Virus record (IMG/VR): IMGVR_UViG_3300002835_000024
Direction: 5' to 3' (one strand)
Length of the DNA stretch: 64,000 nucleotides
Origin: a virus
The position numbers were made by a program, and so were the translations under genes. How positions within the stretch are numbered: the first letter of the stretch is position 1; the number at the start of each line of letters is the position of its first letter. The notes below the pieces were generated by a model. The model ran no database searches. It saw only the letters and a list, made by a program, of their open reading frames with translations, and was not told where the DNA came from. This document shows, in pieces, positions 2,424-15,592 of the stretch.

Positions 2424-3125
2424 ATGAAAAAGAAATTCAAACATAATCTAGTTTGGCCTACTCCGGATTTAGAAACGGAAATCATCAACGGTGGTCGACA
2501 TTATATCGTAAGAGAAGATGTTAAGTTTCCAAGCGTCACAACTATTCTTGATGGCACAGCAGATAAGACTTGGCTACAAGAATGGAAAGCCAGAGTTGGT
2601 GAAGAAGAAGCTGAAAGAATATCAAATCGTGCTAAGAACAGAGGAACTCTTATGCATGAGATGGCGGAAGATTATACGCTAAACAAAGAATTGAAACCTG
2701 TTTCTCCCATCGCAACTATGGTCTTTCAACCCATCAAAAAGAAACTTGACGCCCACGTAGACGAAATAATGTTTGTAGAGGGATGTCTTTGGAGCGAGAA
2801 CCTACGAGTAGCAGGACGTTGTGATCTTATTGCATGCTGGGATGGAGTACCAGCCATCATAGATTATAAGACTGCTTCGAAAGAAAAATGCAAATCGCAT
2901 ATCACAGATTATTTTCTTCAAACATCTTTGTACTCGTATATGTTTTGGGAAAGAACCAATATTCTGGTTGATGATATCGTTATCCTGATATCGGTAGAAG
3001 ATGACCCAGAGGCTCAGGTTTTCCGAGTAAAAGCTTCAGATTATTTACAGGAAGCCAAAGGTAGGATAAAAGCCTATGAAAAAGCTTGTCTCGAGAGGCT
3101 CGAGAGGCGTTTAGAGCCCATATAA
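2424..3125 (+). CDS. PD-(D/E)XK exonuclease (phage Cas4-like/RecB-like)
   Basis: FPSVTTIL, RGTLMH, AGRCD, IIDYKT, YFLQTSLY. Confidence 0.85.
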   Translation: MKKKFKHNLVWPTPDLETEIINGGRHYIVREDVKFPSVTTILDGTADKTWLQEWKARVGEEEAERISNRAKNRGTLMHEMAEDYTLNKELKPVSPIATMVFQPIKKKLDAHVDEIMFVEGCLWSENLRVAGRCDLIACWDGVPAIIDYKTASKEKCKSHITDYFLQTSLYSYMFWERTNILVDDIVILISVEDDPEAQVFRVKASDYLQEAKGRIKAYEKACLERLERRLEPI

Positions 3126-3253
3126 GGCTTTCCTAGCCCCTCCCCAGAGAGCGCACTCTCGGGCTCGAGAGAGGCTTTTAGGGGGTTTAAAAAACCTAAT
3201 AAAAACAAGGGGCGTAATATTAACGTTTTTTAATGAAAAAGTTAGAAAAAAGG

Positions 3254-3282
3254 TTGTTTTTTCTCTCTTAGCCGAGTATACT
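3254..3282 (+). promoter_or_regulatory. Putative sigma70-type early promoter with upstream A/T tracts
   Basis: TTGTTT(3254-3259)-N17-TATACT(3277-3282), upstream of the DUF932 gene. Confidence 0.5.
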
Positions 3283-3329
3283 GACAATATCGCGTTGAAG
3301 CGAATAACTCTTTTGAAGGATCTTATATT

Positions 3330-4343
3330 ATGGCACATATGCTTGAGCGTCTCGCTGATGGTTCTTACTCTATGGCTTGGACTGGCGAAACGCCTTGGCA
3401 CGGTCTCGGGAAGCAAGTTCCTGCTGACCTCACTCCCGAACAAATCATGAAAGAGGCTAATCTCGACTGGGAAGTCGAAAAGGTTCCCGCCTATGCCGAT
3501 ATCACAGTCGGTAAGAAAGTCGAGCGAGTCGCAGTTGGTCGTTCTGCTCTTGTCCGCAAGACGGACGGAAAAGTTCTTGACGTAGTTGGCGATGACTGGA
3601 ATCCTCTGCAAAATGCCGATGCTTTCCAGTTCTTCAATGACTTCATTGCAGCTGGTGACATGTCTATGCATACCGCTGGATCCATTCAGGATGGACGGCG
3701 AGTTTTCGCCCTCGCTAAAGTGAACGAGTCCTTCGAAGCAGTCAAGGGCGATCGTGTTGATTCGTACCTTCTTCTTTCGAATCCCCACCTTTATGGCAAG
3801 ACCATCGACATTCAGTTTACGCCCATTCGGGTTGTTTGCTGGAATACTCTTTCGATGGCTCTTCAGGGTTCGGATCGCAATCGTGTCGCGGTTTCCCACC
3901 GTACTGAGTTCAATGGCGATTCAGTGAAAGAAATGCTGGGTATCGCCAAAGAAAAGCTTCAGACCTATAAAGAAGCTTCCCAGTATCTTTCTTCGAAGCG
4001 TCTGCTGAATGAGACTGCCACTGAGTATTTCTCTCGCGTGTTCGGAACTAAGATGACCAAGAAAGAAGAGAAAGCTTCGGAGCCTTCACGAAACGCTCGG
4101 ATCGCCCTCGATATGCTGCAACAGCAACCTGGAGCCCAGTTCGCCGAAGGCAGTATGTGGCAAGGATTCAATTCCGCTACGTTTGTTATTGACCATATCA
4201 TCGGTCGAAACAATGACAATCGTATGAATTCCGCTTGGTTTGGTTGGGGTCGTACTAAGAAGATCGAAGCAATGAAGATCGCTATGGAGATGGCAGATTC
4301 GGCTCCTGATCTCAGGTCTAAACGCCAGAAAGTTGCTGCATGA
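3330..4343 (+). CDS. DUF932 / phage-plasmid-like (TIGR03299-type) protein
   Basis: MAWTGETPWHGLG, PLQNADAFQFF, TAGSIQDGRRVF, FTPIRVVCWNTL, WQGFNSAT. Confidence 0.85.
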   Translation: MAHMLERLADGSYSMAWTGETPWHGLGKQVPADLTPEQIMKEANLDWEVEKVPAYADITVGKKVERVAVGRSALVRKTDGKVLDVVGDDWNPLQNADAFQFFNDFIAAGDMSMHTAGSIQDGRRVFALAKVNESFEAVKGDRVDSYLLLSNPHLYGKTIDIQFTPIRVVCWNTLSMALQGSDRNRVAVSHRTEFNGDSVKEMLGIAKEKLQTYKEASQYLSSKRLLNETATEYFSRVFGTKMTKKEEKASEPSRNARIALDMLQQQPGAQFAEGSMWQGFNSATFVIDHIIGRNNDNRMNSAWFGWGRTKKIEAMKIAMEMADSAPDLRSKRQKVAA

Positions 4344-4367
4344 TATAACTAAAAACTTCGCCTAAAT

Positions 4368-4397
4368 ATGATCAGTGGGTTTGGGCCCACTGATCAT
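4368..4397 (+). promoter_or_regulatory. 12-bp perfect hairpin upstream of endolysin
   Basis: ATGATCAGTGGG-TTTGGG-CCCACTGATCAT, with no following U-tract. Confidence 0.6.
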
Positions 4398-4416
4398 CTG
4401 CATGTGAGGTTTTAAA

Positions 4417-4911
4417 ATGGCTAAGAGAGAATTAGTTAGTAAGAATTTTTTTCTTGATGAGTTTACATATTCGCCGACAGCCAAGTCGTTCAAGATGAAT
4501 AATGAACCTAATGCAGAGGCGAAAGCAAATCTTAGAAATATCATCAAGAAAATCGCCCAACCAGTCAGAGATAATTTTAAAAAGCCTCTGAAGATTAATT
4601 CTGGTTATAGATCGCCTCAAGTAAATGTTGCAGTGGGTGGAGCATCAAAATCTCAACATACTACGGGAGAGGCTATTGACATAGAAATTGAGGGCGTCTC
4701 AAATAAAGTTTTGGCTGATTGGATCGATAAGAATTTAGAGTACGACCAACTTATTCTAGAATTTTATAATCCAATGCAAGGAGTCAACTCTGGTTGGGTT
4801 CATGTTTCTCTTAGAAAAACTGGCAAAAACAGAAAAAATAAATTGGTTGCTTATAAAGACGGCAAAGCTACACGTTATGAAATGGTAACAGATTTCACTA
4901 AAGTAAAGTAA
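4417..4911 (+). CDS. Peptidase M15A-family endolysin
   Basis: SKNFFLDEF, INSGYRS, SQHTTGEAID, DQLILEF, GWVHVS (H/D/H zinc ligands). Confidence 0.88.
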   Translation: MAKRELVSKNFFLDEFTYSPTAKSFKMNNEPNAEAKANLRNIIKKIAQPVRDNFKKPLKINSGYRSPQVNVAVGGASKSQHTTGEAIDIEIEGVSNKVLADWIDKNLEYDQLILEFYNPMQGVNSGWVHVSLRKTGKNRKNKLVAYKDGKATRYEMVTDFTKVK

Positions 4912-4921
4912 GGAAATCAGA

Positions 4922-5032
4922 ATGAAGAATAATTTTTTCATGTCTACTATAGACGCTATTATGTCTCTGGTTGGCATTTTCGGATTTGTTGATAATATGA
5001 AAGCCGCATTCGCGAGGAAACCTCGTGTTTAA
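4922..5032 (+). CDS. 36-aa peptide with hydrophobic core (not in ORF track)
   Basis: AAGGA RBS, MKNNFFMSTIDAIMSLVGIFGFVDNMKAAFARKPRV. Confidence 0.35.
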   Translation: MKNNFFMSTIDAIMSLVGIFGFVDNMKAAFARKPRV

Positions 5033-5063
5033 AATTTGTGATTTGTTTAAAAGGAATAAAAAT

Positions 5064-5297
5064 ATGTCAAAACATGTTTGGGAAATCTATAGAGACAAAG
5101 CTGGTGAATGGCGTTATCGTATTCTGGCCGAAAACGGCAGAAACGTAGGCTCCTCTGGTGATGGGGTTAAAAATCTAGATGACATATATGAAACAGTCAG
5201 TAGACTTAGAAAACCTCAAGACGATATTTCCATTTTGACTAACAATGAAGGAAACGTTTCTCCGGGTGATAAACAATTCCTTAGCGAGCATGAATAA
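5064..5297 (+). CDS. YegP/DUF1508-family protein
   Basis: WEIYRDKAGEWRYRILAENGRNVGSS.DG. The ATG at 5064 follows AAGGA. Confidence 0.75.
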   Translation: MSKHVWEIYRDKAGEWRYRILAENGRNVGSSGDGVKNLDDIYETVSRLRKPQDDISILTNNEGNVSPGDKQFLSEHE

Positions 5298-5301
5298 ACG
5301 C

Positions 5302-5332
5302 TTGACTTATAGGTCAGAAAAAGGTATAAATA
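5302..5332 (+). promoter_or_regulatory. Composite promoter: sigma70 -35/-10 overlapping a T4 late box
   Basis: TTGACT(5302-5307)-N17-TATAAATA(5325-5332). Confidence 0.75.
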
Positions 5333-5337
5333 GGTTG

Positions 5338-5450
5338 TAGTAGAGTTTCGATGACGATGATCTGGACCAATGAATTTTGGCGTTAGACTAAGATCTCCTT
5401 ATTTTGGGAGTACGTGGGGGTGGATCCCACTCGTTGTTGAATGACTACTA
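5338..5450 (+). ncRNA. Unassigned structured RNA (multibranch, tRNA-like 3' domain)
   Basis: Starts at the predicted TSS. The ends pair (TAGTAG/CTACTA; TTCGATGACGA/TCGTTGTTGAA with G-U pairs). Internal hairpins: CCAA/TTGG, CTCCT/GGGAG and GTGGG-7nt-CCCAC. Confidence 0.55.
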
Positions 5451-5472
5451 ATAAATTGCTAGGAGTGTTTGT

Positions 5473-6264
5473 ATGGGTAAATTATTACAAATTATAAAAG
5501 AAACTCTTTCTGATTATAAAGTAATAGTTTCGCCTCATCCCATTCACTATAGGCGTCCTTATGGAATTTCCAATTTAGACTCAGCAATGTCAGAAGCTTC
5601 TCGAGTCAAAGCTTCTCCAGTCAGTGCTTTAGAACCAGATGAAAAATCTCTAGACGAAATATCAGAAAAACTGACAAAGGACAGGCCAAAAATTTCAGAA
5701 ACCCAAGCAGGTCATGTTGAAGATTATACTACTGATGAAACTGGATCTTCTTATCATATCAATACTTCTCTTATTGACGCGCATAACAATGGAACGCACC
5801 CTGAAGGAGATATGATATATGAAGATAAACGAATTCATCGCACTATTTCAAAATTAACTGAGAATCCAATTGGTCACAGTGTTGATCTTTATTCTGGTGT
5901 TGGGTTTGATCCTGAAAAACTATTAGGTGGTTCTTCTAATTCCATATTGCATCTACCCGCCCACACATCAACGACACATTCTCCTCTCGTCGCGCTTAAA
6001 CACGCCATGGACAATCGTCCGAGAACTGGCAAAGGTAATGGGAATGCTGGCAACACAGCCCACATAATTAAAATTTCTACCACACCAAAAACAAAAGGAT
6101 TTCATGTTGGTGATTTGTCTGAGTTCAATAATGAACGAGAAACAATTTTACCAGCCAAAACAAACTTGATACATTCACATACAACAATGCATACAGATGA
6201 GAATAATCCAAATATAAAAGTGAAAATACATCATTTTGCGGTTCATTCTCAGGAAAACGATTGA
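5473..6264 (+). CDS. ADP-ribosyltransferase-like protein (VIP2/Alt/Mod fold)
   Basis: DYT...SYHINTSL, LYSG (in place of YRG), HTSTT, LSEFNNERETILP (ExE). Confidence 0.72.
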   Translation: MGKLLQIIKETLSDYKVIVSPHPIHYRRPYGISNLDSAMSEASRVKASPVSALEPDEKSLDEISEKLTKDRPKISETQAGHVEDYTTDETGSSYHINTSLIDAHNNGTHPEGDMIYEDKRIHRTISKLTENPIGHSVDLYSGVGFDPEKLLGGSSNSILHLPAHTSTTHSPLVALKHAMDNRPRTGKGNGNAGNTAHIIKISTTPKTKGFHVGDLSEFNNERETILPAKTNLIHSHTTMHTDENNPNIKVKIHHFAVHSQEND

Positions 6265-6291
6265 CAAACTATAAAATATAGGGTATAAATA
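6261..6291 (+). promoter_or_regulatory. Composite promoter for tmRNA: consensus -35 plus T4 late box
   Basis: TTGACA(6261-6266)-N17-TATAAATA(6284-6291). Confidence 0.8.
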
Positions 6292-6295
6292 GTCT

Positions 6296-6612
6296 TAATG
6301 ATAGTAAACTGATGGGTGTTAAAGCAAGCAAGACGAGGGTGCGAATCCCTCCGCCTCCACCAAAAGCAGTATGTAAAGGTTGTTGACCTTCATCATATGC
6401 TAGCTAGGTAAGTAGAATTCTTACTACATACTGTTTTTGATGGGGGCGAATTAGGATCGATTGGTTGTGAATAAATCCAAAGGCTATCCGGATGTTCTCC
6501 GTTAAACGAACAAAAACTAGAAATGCCAACGATAACGAAGTTGCATTTGAGACTCGCCTAGCGGCATGATCTCGACGGGCACGGAGGACGCCTTGGAACA
6601 GAAGTTCCTCCA
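6296..6612 (+). ncRNA. ssrA: Circularly permuted (two-piece) tmRNA, alphaproteobacterial type
   Basis: The acceptor piece ends GAGGGTGCGAATCCCTCCGCCTCCACCA (6362). Intervening sequence 6363-6441. The coding piece starts GGGGGCGAATTAGGATCGA (6442). Tag frame 6525-6569 = ANDNEVAFETRLAA*. 3' GGAACAGAA hairpin. Outer ends approximate. Confidence 0.93.
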
Positions 6613-6643
6613 CTAATCTTAACATGTTAAAGGAATGAATAAA

Positions 6644-6826
6644 ATGAAATATATTGCTGCTGCTCTTGTTCTCTCTCTTGCCGCCTGCTCGCAAGAAGCT
6701 CCTGTTGCTCCTCCGGTCGAGCCTGCTCCTCCAGTTGAAACACCAACTCCTGTTGCTCCTGCTGAGCCGCCTGCTGTTGTTGAACCTGTCAATCCCGCTG
6801 AAGCTGCAACCACTGTAGCTCAGTAG
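6644..6826 (+). CDS. Small Pro/Ala/Glu-rich lipoprotein
   Basis: Signal peptide II MKYIAAALVLSLAA-C with lipobox LAAC and Ser at +2; mature part EAPVAPPVEPAPPVETPTP... Confidence 0.75.
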   Translation: MKYIAAALVLSLAACSQEAPVAPPVEPAPPVETPTPVAPAEPPAVVEPVNPAEAATTVAQ

Positions 6827-6917: not shown

Positions 6918-9191
6918 ATGATTAAAAAGGCTTTATTACTAGCCACAGCTAGTATGGCTATTGCGCCTGCAATTTATGCGCAACAACATGATGTTGTTAT
7001 TATTACTGCCACTAAGACTGAAACTGATCTGCAAGATACGCCTATTTCAGTAGCTGTGCTTGACGACGAACAACTGGTAAAAAGAAATGCAGGAAGCTTG
7101 CTTGATCTTTCTGATGGATCAGTTCCAAGTCTAAGAATCGCAACTTTCGAATCCAGACAGTCTGCACTTACAGTAGGCATGAGAGGAATTGTGCCAGGAG
7201 ACGCTAACCAGCCAGCTAGGGAACAAGGTGTTGGTGTTTACCTTGACGGAGTTTACATGGGCAGACAGCATGGTCTAAATGCTGGGTTTCTCGACATTGA
7301 GCGTGTTGAAGTTCTTCGTGGTCCACAGGGTACGCTGTTTGGACGAAATACCGAAGGTGGGGCTGTGAACATCATCAGTAAATCTCCAACAGGAGTTTTT
7401 GGAGGATCTTTCAGCGCTGGAGTTGGTAATTACGGAATTTATTCTGGCAACTTCCGTCTTAATTTGCCGGAGTTTGCTGGTGTTTCTGTAAAGATGGATG
7501 CGGGAATTCAACATCAAGACGCGACCACAAAAAACCCAACCCAAAATCAATATGGATGGAATTATCATCACAGGTATGGCGGAAGAATAGCAGCAAGGTG
7601 GGAACCTACGGATACTTTCCGTGCTGATATTGCTGTTGATTCCAGCAGAGATCAAAACACCCCCTATTTCAGCCAATTGATTAACTATAATCCTCTGAAC
7701 AGACCTGTCGCGACACTTTCTCAAATTGCTGCAGCTGGCAATAAAATACCTTCCGGATATGTCGCGCCTCTTCCTAGCGTTGTTGTGGTGCAACCCGATC
7801 GTGCCAAATCTGCCGCAGTTGGAGTTCCTCAAGAACCAAGTATCGGCAAATCTTCAGGTATCACTTCAACCCTAACTTGGGACATCAATGATGATCTTGA
7901 GTTTAAATCTATTACAGCAAGGCGTGAAGTGTCAGATCGCCAGTTTGATAATTCAGGTTCAGCTAATCGCACACCTGTTTTTGTCCCTAACGCCACATTC
8001 AGTAGATATTCAATCGCTAAATTGAATCAAGAACAGTTTTCACAAGAGTTCCAGCTTATTGGTTCAATGGACAATTTAACCTATGTTGTTGGCGCTTATT
8101 ATTTTACGGAAACTGCTGATGATGAAGCAAGAACTCCCAATACTAATAAATGGAATGCCTTTGGCACAGCCTACACCTTTGTTGATCCCAGCACATATTC
8201 GCTAACGCCAATTGCTCGCGCTTCACAAGCAGAAGCTGATAGCTACGCTCTCTATGGCCAGGCCACATATACGGTAAATGATGATTGGCATTTTACCCTT
8301 GGTGGTAGAGTTACAGAAGATAAGAAAAATGGTAAACTGTTCACGGTGAATGGCGCAAGCACTAATCTAACCTTCAGACAAGAGAACAGACGATTTGATC
8401 CGCTTGCTACGCTTGTTTACGATTTCAATGATGATATCAATGTTTATGCAAAATATACAACAGGATATCGTGCTGGCGGAGCCAGTTCTCGGTCACTGAT
8501 TTATCGTTCTTTTGGACCTGAATCTGTGAAGTCATATGAAATTGGATCCAAGATGGATCTATTTGATAACACCAGACTAAATGTTGCTGCTTATACCATG
8601 GACAGAAAAGACAGTCAGGTTGATTTCAATTTCTTTGTCCCCCAACCAAACGGTACCGTCCGCAATACCCTCGAAACAGTGAATGCGGAAGGCACCACAA
8701 AAATCAAGGGGCTTGAAGTAGATCTAACTGTAGAACCAATTGATGATCTTAAGATGGCTGTTTCATATGCATATACGGACACTCTGATGCCACTCGCCCG
8801 TAATACTGTGCAAGAGCAACTTAATGCATTGCTGACTCCACCTAATCTGTCTCCGGTATTCCAGAAAGTGTTCATCACATATACCCCAGAACATGCTTTG
8901 TCAGCATCTGTTGATTATGACATTGTTGATTGGAGTTTTCATATTGATGGAAACTATTCATCACCCCAATACACTTTTGACAACGAAGATGTTCAAAATG
9001 AAGAAAGCTTTGTTGTCAACACTCGTGTAAGTAAAGAATTTGAAAACTTTACAGTTTCAATTTGGAGTCGTAATCTTTTTGATACGTCTTACATTTATAG
9101 ACGTTCAAATGCCAACGGAACAGTGTTGGGCGATTATGCAAACTTTAATGAGCCTAGAACGTTTGGTATCGACTTCACAACAAATTTCTAG
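6918..9191 (+). CDS. TonB-dependent outer-membrane receptor, full length
   Basis: Sec signal, TonB box DVVIITA, plug motif DIERVEVLRGPQGTLFGRNTEGGAVNI, barrel C-terminus RNLFD...PRTFGIDFTTNF ending in Phe. Confidence 0.95.
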   Translation: MIKKALLLATASMAIAPAIYAQQHDVVIITATKTETDLQDTPISVAVLDDEQLVKRNAGSLLDLSDGSVPSLRIATFESRQSALTVGMRGIVPGDANQPAREQGVGVYLDGVYMGRQHGLNAGFLDIERVEVLRGPQGTLFGRNTEGGAVNIISKSPTGVFGGSFSAGVGNYGIYSGNFRLNLPEFAGVSVKMDAGIQHQDATTKNPTQNQYGWNYHHRYGGRIAARWEPTDTFRADIAVDSSRDQNTPYFSQLINYNPLNRPVATLSQIAAAGNKIPSGYVAPLPSVVVVQPDRAKSAAVGVPQEPSIGKSSGITSTLTWDINDDLEFKSITARREVSDRQFDNSGSANRTPVFVPNATFSRYSIAKLNQEQFSQEFQLIGSMDNLTYVVGAYYFTETADDEARTPNTNKWNAFGTAYTFVDPSTYSLTPIARASQAEADSYALYGQATYTVNDDWHFTLGGRVTEDKKNGKLFTVNGASTNLTFRQENRRFDPLATLVYDFNDDINVYAKYTTGYRAGGASSRSLIYRSFGPESVKSYEIGSKMDLFDNTRLNVAAYTMDRKDSQVDFNFFVPQPNGTVRNTLETVNAEGTTKIKGLEVDLTVEPIDDLKMAVSYAYTDTLMPLARNTVQEQLNALLTPPNLSPVFQKVFITYTPEHALSASVDYDIVDWSFHIDGNYSSPQYTFDNEDVQNEESFVVNTRVSKEFENFTVSIWSRNLFDTSYIYRRSNANGTVLGDYANFNEPRTFGIDFTTNF

Positions 9192-15573: not shown

Positions 15574-15592
15574 TATTTATTTGATATAAATA
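15574..15592. promoter_or_regulatory. Divergent T4-type late promoters
   Basis: TATAAATA at 15585-15592 (+) and AATAAATA at 15574-15581 (-), between divergent operons. Confidence 0.7.

Follow-up and report, generated by a model that had tools for sequence, protein, structure and literature searches.

A four-way-junction RNA segment between a tmRNA-type promoter and an ADP-ribosyltransferase gene in a freshwater T4-like phage, tentatively read as an mRNA leader

The stretch of viral DNA analyzed here (64,000 nt; IMG/VR record IMGVR_UViG_3300002835_000024), referred to as the window, derives from an uncultured freshwater T4-like phage. A 113-nt segment at positions 5338–5450 (+ strand), named RNA113, is located between a promoter and a gene for an ADP-ribosyltransferase (ART) and is predicted to form a four-way-junction RNA domain, as judged from its fold prediction, its pair table, and its rank among windows. 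The locus is organized in the order DUF1508 gene, promoter, RNA113, ART, promoter, transfer-messenger RNA (tmRNA), lipoprotein, TonB-dependent receptor, and gp33 (a late co-activator); the genes neighboring RNA113 are those for the DUF1508 protein, an endolysin, ART, and tmRNA. An earlier reading made from the letters alone (the sequence-only reading) had described a structured RNA with its own promoter at this place, and sequence and coordinates of 5338–5450 match that description. Identical or near-identical copies are present on metagenome contigs of up to 145 kb, together with genes for RNase H, PhoH, gp33, gp59, and gp32. These contigs come from lakes (for example JGI 3300020554 and 3300042520, and the ENA ERZ272717xx series). 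The gp32 protein is 50–59% identical to cyanomyovirus gp32, and among cultured phages the OM43 phage Melnitz is nearest (DUF932 protein 49% identical). The phage probably infects freshwater relatives of the bacteria that Melnitz and the pelagimyophages infect.

RNA113 is preceded by TTGACT (5302–5307), a 17-nt spacer, and TATAAATA (5325–5332), which together constitute the first copy of a dual promoter (5302–5332, +), with an AT-rich AATAAA upstream of it. The TATAAATA box is a −10 element and a T4-type late box at once, which makes the case for a promoter stronger than at first reading. Because σ70-type −35 and −10 elements are combined with a late box, the promoter should work both early (with host σ70) and late (with gp55/gp33). 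The T4 late promoter is an 8-bp TATA box with its first base at −13, spanning −13 to −6 (PMC2988020); in this register, +1 falls on position 5338, where the pairing of the outer closing helix (P1, see below) begins, so that the segment begins at the predicted start of transcription, as had been proposed. The second copy (6261–6292, +; TTGACA, 17 nt, TATAAATA) drives the tmRNA. The pattern TTGAC-N16–18-TATAAATA matched exactly twice in the 64 kb, at 5302–5332 and 6261–6291 (0.02 matches expected by chance), which bears out the earlier remark that RNA113 and tmRNA share one promoter design. The RNA113 promoter is homologous to the tmRNA promoter of the relatives, ATAAA(T)CGCTTGAC...GGTATAAATAG; the latter is thus the tmRNA promoter that is conserved in the phage group, with RNA113 lying behind a copy of it. 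There are nine TATAAATA boxes in the window, all on the + strand, and those at 15585, 27377, 53829, and 62797 lie 27–76 nt upstream of listed starts of open reading frames (ORFs). The leaders of the other seven late-box transcripts are short and weakly folded, which makes a folded leader of 135 nt exceptional in this phage.

The minimum free energy (MFE) structure of RNA113 is also the centroid structure (−36.8 kcal/mol). Its ends pair in two closing helices on the + strand, P1 (6 bp; 5338–5343 with 5445–5450) and P2 (11 bp; 5347–5357 with 5431–5441), which are separated by a 3 × 3 internal loop. P2 encloses three hairpins, H1 (5361–5387, +), H2 (5395–5410, +; loop of 6 or 8 nt), and H3 (5414–5430, +), and the linkers of the junction are 3, 7, 3, and 0 nt long. 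The sequence-only reading had drawn two such helices around three hairpins, the last of them stacked straight on the closing helix, and both MFE and centroid structures reproduce this layout, with 0 nt between H3 and the 3′ strand of P2 that it abuts. H3 can be read in two ways, as 5 bp with a 7-nt loop or as 6 bp with a 5-nt loop; its loop is GGUGGAU and its stem is of the form G5...C3. The fold persists when 70 nt of downstream sequence are added. An 11-codon ORF inside RNA113 (5351–5386) was rejected as a coding candidate, having neither a convincing ribosome-binding site nor informative variation.

Compared with dinucleotide shuffles, RNA113 folds with z = −3.09, and 2 of 200 shuffles fold equally well. 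Among 8,520 windows of 113 nt from both strands of the 64 kb, 0.42% beat RNA113 when adjusted for GC content, and 0.4–0.5% match its stability with or without GC correction. RNA113 is not alone in this, as some ten sites elsewhere in the window fold equally well or better; scores above that of RNA113 were reached by the tmRNA, by two terminator regions, and by two further stretches between genes. The region 3076–3330 (+; between the PD-(D/E)XK exonuclease gene and the DUF932 gene; 55% GC, the phage having 38%) and the region 4344–4463 (+; between the DUF932 gene and the endolysin gene) each fold more stably than RNA113, and a search for Rfam matches at E ≤ 1 returned none for either.

The − strand of RNA113 reaches only −26.3 kcal/mol, i.e., the + strand is more stable by 10.5 kcal/mol. 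Its stems contain seven G-U pairs versus at most one A-C mismatch (A29 opposite C44; binomial estimate for this asymmetry about 0.04), which favors an RNA fold on the + strand over an inverted repeat at the DNA level. The + strand specificity claimed before thus held by energy as well as by pair composition.

An AU-rich linker (5451–5472, +), 100% identical in the related locus L017, connects the fold to the ART gene (5473–6264, +; 263 amino acids [aa]). It contains the Shine-Dalgarno (SD) sequence AGGAG of ART (5462–5466), and the ATG at 5473 starts 22 nt past the fold. A terminator scan revealed no separate terminator between RNA113 and the ART gene; it flagged only H3 with the U-rich 3′ strand of P2, which is weakly terminator-like and has an interrupted U-tract. 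That no terminator precedes the ART gene 22 nt downstream, as stated in the sequence-only reading, was thereby confirmed, H3 and its U-rich tail being the only element flagged. The ART stop codon (TGA, 6262–6264) overlaps the second promoter, falling within its −35 box.

The ART product is assigned to Pfam PF03496 barely over threshold (E = 1.2e-5). Its AlphaFold model, built on a shallow alignment (mean predicted local distance difference test score 62), has a C3/VIP2-like fold, and its best Foldseek matches in the PDB are C2-I, C3bot2, Certhrax, Vis, and VIP2 (E about 1e-7). In an alignment of five sequences, all five members of the family have an invariant Ser for the Arg of the R-S-E triad but retain STS-like (S-x-T) and ExE (E-x-E) motifs; residue 141 belongs to a Ser-Gly pair ([YF]SG) where enzymes of the C3/VIP2 type have the NAD-binding Arg. 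Another triad, R-Y-E, is that of RhsP2 (PMC12340436). The family is small: 5.8 billion proteins yield about five clusters at 90% identity. A 15-nt tandem repeat (2.3 copies, 5589–5624) lies in the low-confidence N-terminal part of ART.

Homologues were sought with R1, a covariance model purpose-built from RNA113. Among the sequences searched, R1 found RNA113 only in the window phage (loci L006–L011, L014–L016, and L018) and in L017, which is ∼87% identical to the window in the region upstream of ART. Every copy lies directly 5′ of an ART gene, which in L017 is a paralogous ART whose first ten codons are unchanged. R1 detected no further RNA113 in the window and distant ART loci, no match beyond the known copies in 80 metagenome DUF1508 loci, and no match in L100 and L101 (with filters off), in the whole Melnitz and C48C1 genomes plus two IMG/VR contigs, or in six IMG/VR loci. 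Across 151 alphaproteobacterial genomes, it returned one match (E = 0.03 per genome), as expected by chance, and in the T4 tRNA/rnaC/rnaD region the best match, overlapping rnaC, had E = 7.9 and is not meaningful. Exact patterns from four RNA113 segments retrieved from IMG/VR only three chance matches in acidic coding repeats, and blastn of 5000–6700 and tblastn of ART against phage GenBank records retrieved nothing. At least five relatives (L020/L101, L100, L107/L109, and L108) have the promoter and the tmRNA without ART or RNA113, and no RNA113 was found with the ART homologues of L012, L013, and L104 (those of L012 and L013 being 53–57% identical). In the loci examined, ART occurs without RNA113, but RNA113 never occurs without ART.

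The window-phage population contains a single RNA113 polymorphism, U112C (position 5449), which changes ...CUACUA to ...CUACCA in L008 and L018. It breaks the A2–U112 pair of P1 and creates CCA; L017 reads ...CUGCCA. The sequence-only reading had stressed that CCA is absent, which is correct for the window but not for L008, L018, and L017, where the U-to-C change produces it. The RNA113 of L017 carries four substitutions. Three affect stems (G-U to A-U in P2, U-A to U-G in P1, and U112C), and the fourth lies in the H3 loop. Covariation, proposed earlier as a check, amounted to 0 compensatory pairs, two one-sided changes that keep the pairing, and one broken pair, but only three distinct sequences were available for this count.

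RNA113 and ART form a block with a copy of the 11-nt direct repeat GGTATAAATAG at either end, the spacing between the copies being 959 nt. The left copy is located at 5323–5333 (+), the right one in the second promoter. At the left copy, the identity between the window and L017 changes in a step, from 58–77% just left of the first late box to 97–100% within 5323–6282; right of the second late box, it is 83% and then 44–49%. A block so nearly identical between diverged flanks looks like a recently exchanged cassette. RNA113 differs from its L017 counterpart by 3.5% (96.5% identity) and the third codon positions of ART by 2.7% (97.3% identity). The latter value indicates that the whole block is young, and the identity of RNA113 is therefore no evidence of selection; the notion of a “conserved island” as a sign of selection was dropped, because the whole cassette, ART third positions included, is equally conserved.

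T4-type phages shuffle genes via recombination between repeated promoter/stem-loop elements, among them promoter-early stem-loop (PeSL) elements, which flank orphan genes in hyperplastic regions (PMC2839356, PMC4122927) and combine strong promoters with G-run/C-run stem-loops (PMC2839356). The cassette described here resembles them in several respects: an accessory gene in a variable region is flanked on either side by a copy of a strong σ70-like promoter with AT-rich upstream sequence, the identity breakpoints relative to L017 fall in the promoter copies, and a G-run/C-run stem-loop (H3) is adjacent. In contrast to PeSL elements, of which RB49 and phi1 have about 50 per genome, the repeat is present in two copies in 64 kb, and it is a dual early/late promoter, the conserved one of an RNA gene (tmRNA). 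Its structure, a four-way junction of 113 nt, lies past the start site, whereas that of PeSL elements is a single terminator hairpin. Promoter repeats that coincide with breakpoints are thus found, but neither a single hairpin nor dozens of copies.

The interval between DUF1508 and gp33 is hypervariable among the relatives. In L107/L109, the DUF1508 gene is followed by promoter and tmRNA; in L100, by an ORF of 138 aa, promoter, tmRNA, and tRNA-Asn; and in L101/L020, by promoter, a 65-nt hairpin-forming insert, a second late box, tmRNA, and tRNA-Asn. L012 has DUF1508 overlapping ART (57% identical), then promoter and tmRNA, and L013 has DUF1508, a 32-nt gap, and ART (53% identical). L017 follows the order of the window, with a second, paralogous ART between RNA113 and ART and without the receptor. 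The insert of ∼65 nt (L101:1341–1404 = L020:1341–1404) forms two hairpins between two late-box copies, the first beginning near the predicted +1 of the tmRNA promoter, and structured inserts near this promoter may be recurrent at the site. A tRNA-Asn(GUU) follows the tmRNA directly in L100 (3020–3094) and L101 (1697–1772), and past an ORF of 173 aa in L012 (2106–2180); ARAGORN found no tRNA in the 64-kb window. The paralogous ART of L017 (L017:1051–1974; 307 aa) is 29% identical to the 263-aa ART and has both ends in common with it, MGKLLQIIKE as the first ten residues and HHFxVHSQEND at the C terminus. These shared gene ends suggest insertion or duplication by recombination within them.

In Melnitz-like phages, a gene for a two-piece tmRNA, with an early promoter in front of it, lies shortly before gp33 (PMC9004378), and the window contains a gene of this type, too, at about 6297–6614. 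This neighbor of RNA113 (6297–6614, +) is circularly permuted and of the alphaproteobacterial type according to ARAGORN, and scores 123.8 bits with Rfam RF04321 and 113.2 bits with RF01849. Between tmRNA and gp33, a full-length gene for a TonB-dependent receptor (Plug and barrel) is located at 6918–9191. It is missing from L017, L100, L101, and L012, which makes it another accessory cassette of the variable region. Its nearest match in a genome is only 23% identical and stems from a marine alphaproteobacterial metagenome-assembled genome; as the sole match, it was discarded as uninformative about the host.

RNA113 was compared with known RNA families. Rfam at gathering score, applied to the whole window, assigned no family to RNA113, and at E ≤ 10 the interval 5200–5600 gave chance-level matches only (snoZ247, E = 3.4; K10_TLS, E = 8.6). 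With ARAGORN also giving nothing for RNA113, the earlier statement that it belongs to no known family was upheld. In the tRNA cloverleaf, the acceptor stem has 7 bp and the anticodon loop 7 nt, and there is a D-arm as well as a T-loop carrying U54-U55-C56 and A58. RNA113 was rejected as a tRNA, since ARAGORN at default settings found nothing and RF00005 did not match at E ≤ 10; with the ARAGORN threshold lowered to 60%, only a malformed call with a 2-nt anticodon appeared, and the H3 loop GGUGGAU is without the conserved U54, U55, C56, and A58. It was likewise rejected as a tmRNA piece, the Rfam tmRNA models matching only 6257–6614. 6S RNA is an irregular hairpin of ∼180 nt, the large bubble at its center mimicking a promoter in the open state; RNA113, a 113-nt four-way junction without a matching Rfam model, was rejected as such. 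With YrlA and other tRNA mimics it shares a long end-to-end stem, a tRNA-like multi-helix module, and a length of about 110 nt, but it was not retained as Y RNA-like, given no Rfam match at E ≤ 10 and a T-loop that is not GGUUCGAAUCC; no Ro/Rsr gene was seen among the genes near RNA113. The labels “6S-like,” “Y-like,” and “tRNA mimic” of the sequence-only reading therefore failed the tests run (Rfam at E ≤ 10, ARAGORN, and loop sequence). As a known riboswitch, it was rejected because no Rfam aptamer matched, the only hints of an expression platform being H3 with its interrupted U-tract and a 5-nt anti-SD stretch. Type III toxin-antitoxin RNAs (ToxI-like) consist of a short unit in tandem direct repeats that precede the toxin gene, with a terminator after them; 5298–5472 contains no such repeats, hence RNA113 is not a ToxI-like antitoxin. 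The small stable RNAs RNAC and RNAD of T4 (species 1 and 2; 119–139 nt) have no known roles (PMC3014915). RNA113 has the layout of rnaC, in which a closing stem encloses hairpins and a T-arm lies directly against its 3′ strand, but no similarity to rnaC or rnaD in sequence or model (best R1 match E = 7.9). Whereas rnaC has a canonical GGUUCGAAUCC T-loop, lies in a tRNA gene cluster, and is processed with the tRNAs, RNA113 has its own promoter, a loop (GGUGGAU) that departs from the canonical one, and a protein gene following after 22 nt, and is not part of a tRNA cluster.

RNA113 is tentatively interpreted, at close to an even chance, as a structured 5′ leader of the ART mRNA within a PeSL-like promoter-repeat cassette. 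This interpretation starts from what the locus shows: a fold with strand bias behind a promoter, a ribosome-binding site close by with no real terminator in between, exclusive linkage to ART, and a cassette with defined boundaries. The phage group keeps one strong dual promoter, which should fire early and late, before the tmRNA, and in this lineage a 959-bp block (RNA113, ribosome-binding site, and ART) lies between two copies of it. Transcription from the first copy would begin at about 5338, and the first 113 nt would fold at once into a closed four-way junction in which the 5′-terminal nucleotides are paired. Without an efficient terminator, the polymerase would continue into ART and probably into the tmRNA. 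As a leader acting in cis, the paired 5′ end may shield the mRNA from 5′-end-dependent decay by RNase E, and the closed fold may keep the leader from pairing with the ART ribosome-binding site, leaving the latter free. A leaky stop at H3 and its U-rich tail could release a by-product of ∼100 nt.

A base-paired 5′ end is a classic shield of mRNA against 5′-end-dependent RNase E decay, and the 5′ stem-loop stabilizers of the ompA 5′ untranslated region and of the T4 gene 32 leader are simple hairpins. RNA113 shares with these leaders a paired extreme 5′ end upstream of an accessible ribosome-binding site; unlike them, it is a multi-branched domain, and its stabilizing effect is putative. The sequence-only reading had offered an RNA partner or leader of ART as one option. 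The link to ART stands, and “leader” fits it best; an obligate pairing does not, as the ART homologues of L012, L013, and L104 lack the element.

Several points weigh against the leader interpretation. Transcription start and read-through are predictions. RNA113 is no more conserved than synonymous sites of ART (3.5% versus 2.7% divergence), and without excess conservation or compensatory changes, selection on the fold is unproven. For a stabilizer, one 5′ hairpin suffices, and a four-way junction with a T-arm-like hairpin is over-elaborate. Its promoter is shared with an RNA gene (tmRNA) and not with protein genes, which would also fit a stand-alone RNA. Finally, the ART homologues of L012 and L013 manage without any leader.

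A stand-alone RNA, the foremost alternative, is unlikely but deserves weight. RNA113 would then be a discrete, stable, tRNA-shaped small RNA, either cut out by RNase P, RNase E, or 3′ exonucleases or ended at H3, and would act in trans as a decoy or mimic, of which RNAC and RNAD of T4 are suspected. The cloverleaf topology, with four helices, linkers of 3/7/3/0 nt, and the last hairpin stacked on the closing helix, is what such an RNA would look like, and T4 rnaC folds alike; moreover, the promoter is that of the tmRNA and is found nowhere else in the 64 kb. As to processing, the AU-rich single strand past P1 might contain an RNase E site, H3 plus the U-rich tail could yield a product of ∼100 nt, and three copies (L008, L018, and L017) end the fold in ...CCA, but these CCA bases sit within P1 and not in a single-stranded tail. 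No terminator follows RNA113, and no RNase P-type tRNA features were detected at it, for which reasons the discrete non-coding RNA of the sequence-only reading was not sustained. The T-like loop is without U54/U55/C56/A58, with ARAGORN and the Rfam tRNA model negative; the element was found in two close lineages only, in each case together with ART; and no compensatory pair was seen among the three distinct sequences.

That RNA113 has no RNA function at all is rather improbable. It would be filler or a recombination scar with a fold that is fortuitous or of use at the DNA level, for example as part of a PeSL-like stem-loop, and its neutral level of divergence inside the cassette, its very narrow distribution, the lack of compensatory changes, and the P1 pair broken by U112C in three copies are all compatible with this. 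So are the different 65-nt hairpin-forming insert at the same promoter of L101/L020, the roughly ten other places in the window that fold as well, and the G5...C3 stem of H3, which resembles the G-run/C-run stem-loop of PeSL elements. PeSL stem-loops, however, are single hairpins that terminate upstream transcription, not 113-nt junctions past a promoter. A fold within the top 0.5% of windows that starts exactly at the predicted +1 also speaks against filler, as do the seven G-U pairs versus at most one A-C mismatch, which favor a + strand RNA fold, and the two of three L017 stem substitutions that keep the pairing (G-U to A-U and U-A to U-G).

RNA113 might instead be a regulatory leader that senses NAD+, ADP-ribose, or ART itself and tunes ART through a fold switch or a leaky stop at H3, which is considered very unlikely. 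A junction fold between promoter and gene is the usual place of a riboswitch, and in related marine phages a riboswitch has been reported in the same genome region (PMC9004378), but no riboswitch family matches even at E ≤ 10, and there is no conservation pattern that would define a binding pocket. H3 and the U-rich stretch were flagged as terminator-like, with a U-tract, however, that is interrupted. The 5′ strand of H2 contains CUCCU, complementary to the ART SD sequence AGGAG; a 5-nt match of this kind occurs by chance about once per 1 kb. A convincing alternative fold is lacking, the MFE structure being the centroid and persisting in the longer transcript. A search for RNA duplexes between RNA113 and downstream sequence, a method ill-suited to the task, gave scores not above background.

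Highly improbable is the proposal that a stable tRNA-shaped RNA, made early and late, works together with ART as a mobile host-takeover module, whether as a NAD-capped RNA that ART would join to host proteins by RNAylation or as a decoy or guide that would direct the enzyme to its target. As with Alt, ModA, and ModB of T4, an ADP-ribosyltransferase of a T4-type phage stands behind a strong promoter, and RNAylation by ModB, the T4 ART that attaches RNA to proteins, uses NAD-capped RNA (PMC10468400). The ART described here differs from these enzymes in being a PF03496 protein with a C3/VIP2-like fold and Ser for the triad Arg, and no link between it and RNA-targeting ARTs was found. Scarcely credible, and already weakly refuted, is an origin by decay of a tRNA gene or by duplication and divergence of the tmRNA acceptor piece, copied along with the tmRNA promoter: relatives do have a tRNA-Asn by the tmRNA that the window lacks, H3 matches the T-arm region of the window tmRNA at 13 of 17 positions (the best local alignment), and MAFFT aligns RNA113 with tmRNA acceptor pieces, but local alignments with five acceptor pieces are not above shuffled or genomic controls (p = 0.32–0.99), no Rfam tRNA or tmRNA model matches at E ≤ 10, and intact stems with non-canonical loops are the opposite of simple decay.

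On present evidence, the sequence of RNA113 is new, and its arrangement is of a known kind, in a variant restricted to this lineage. The element occurs in a single lineage of uncultured freshwater phages and is not yet a discovery but a reasonable candidate for metatranscriptome mapping. In T4, no trans-acting small RNA or riboswitch has been functionally characterized yet (PMC3014915), and a discrete RNA at this locus would thus be of real interest, especially beside an ART, given RNAylation (PMC10468400). Should RNA113 be the structured leader of the ART mRNA, it would be a clear case from nature of how T4-like phages assemble expression cassettes and trade them, in which a copy of a conserved RNA-gene promoter that is active early and late, a structured leader, and an accessory host-modifying enzyme are swapped as a unit at promoter repeats.

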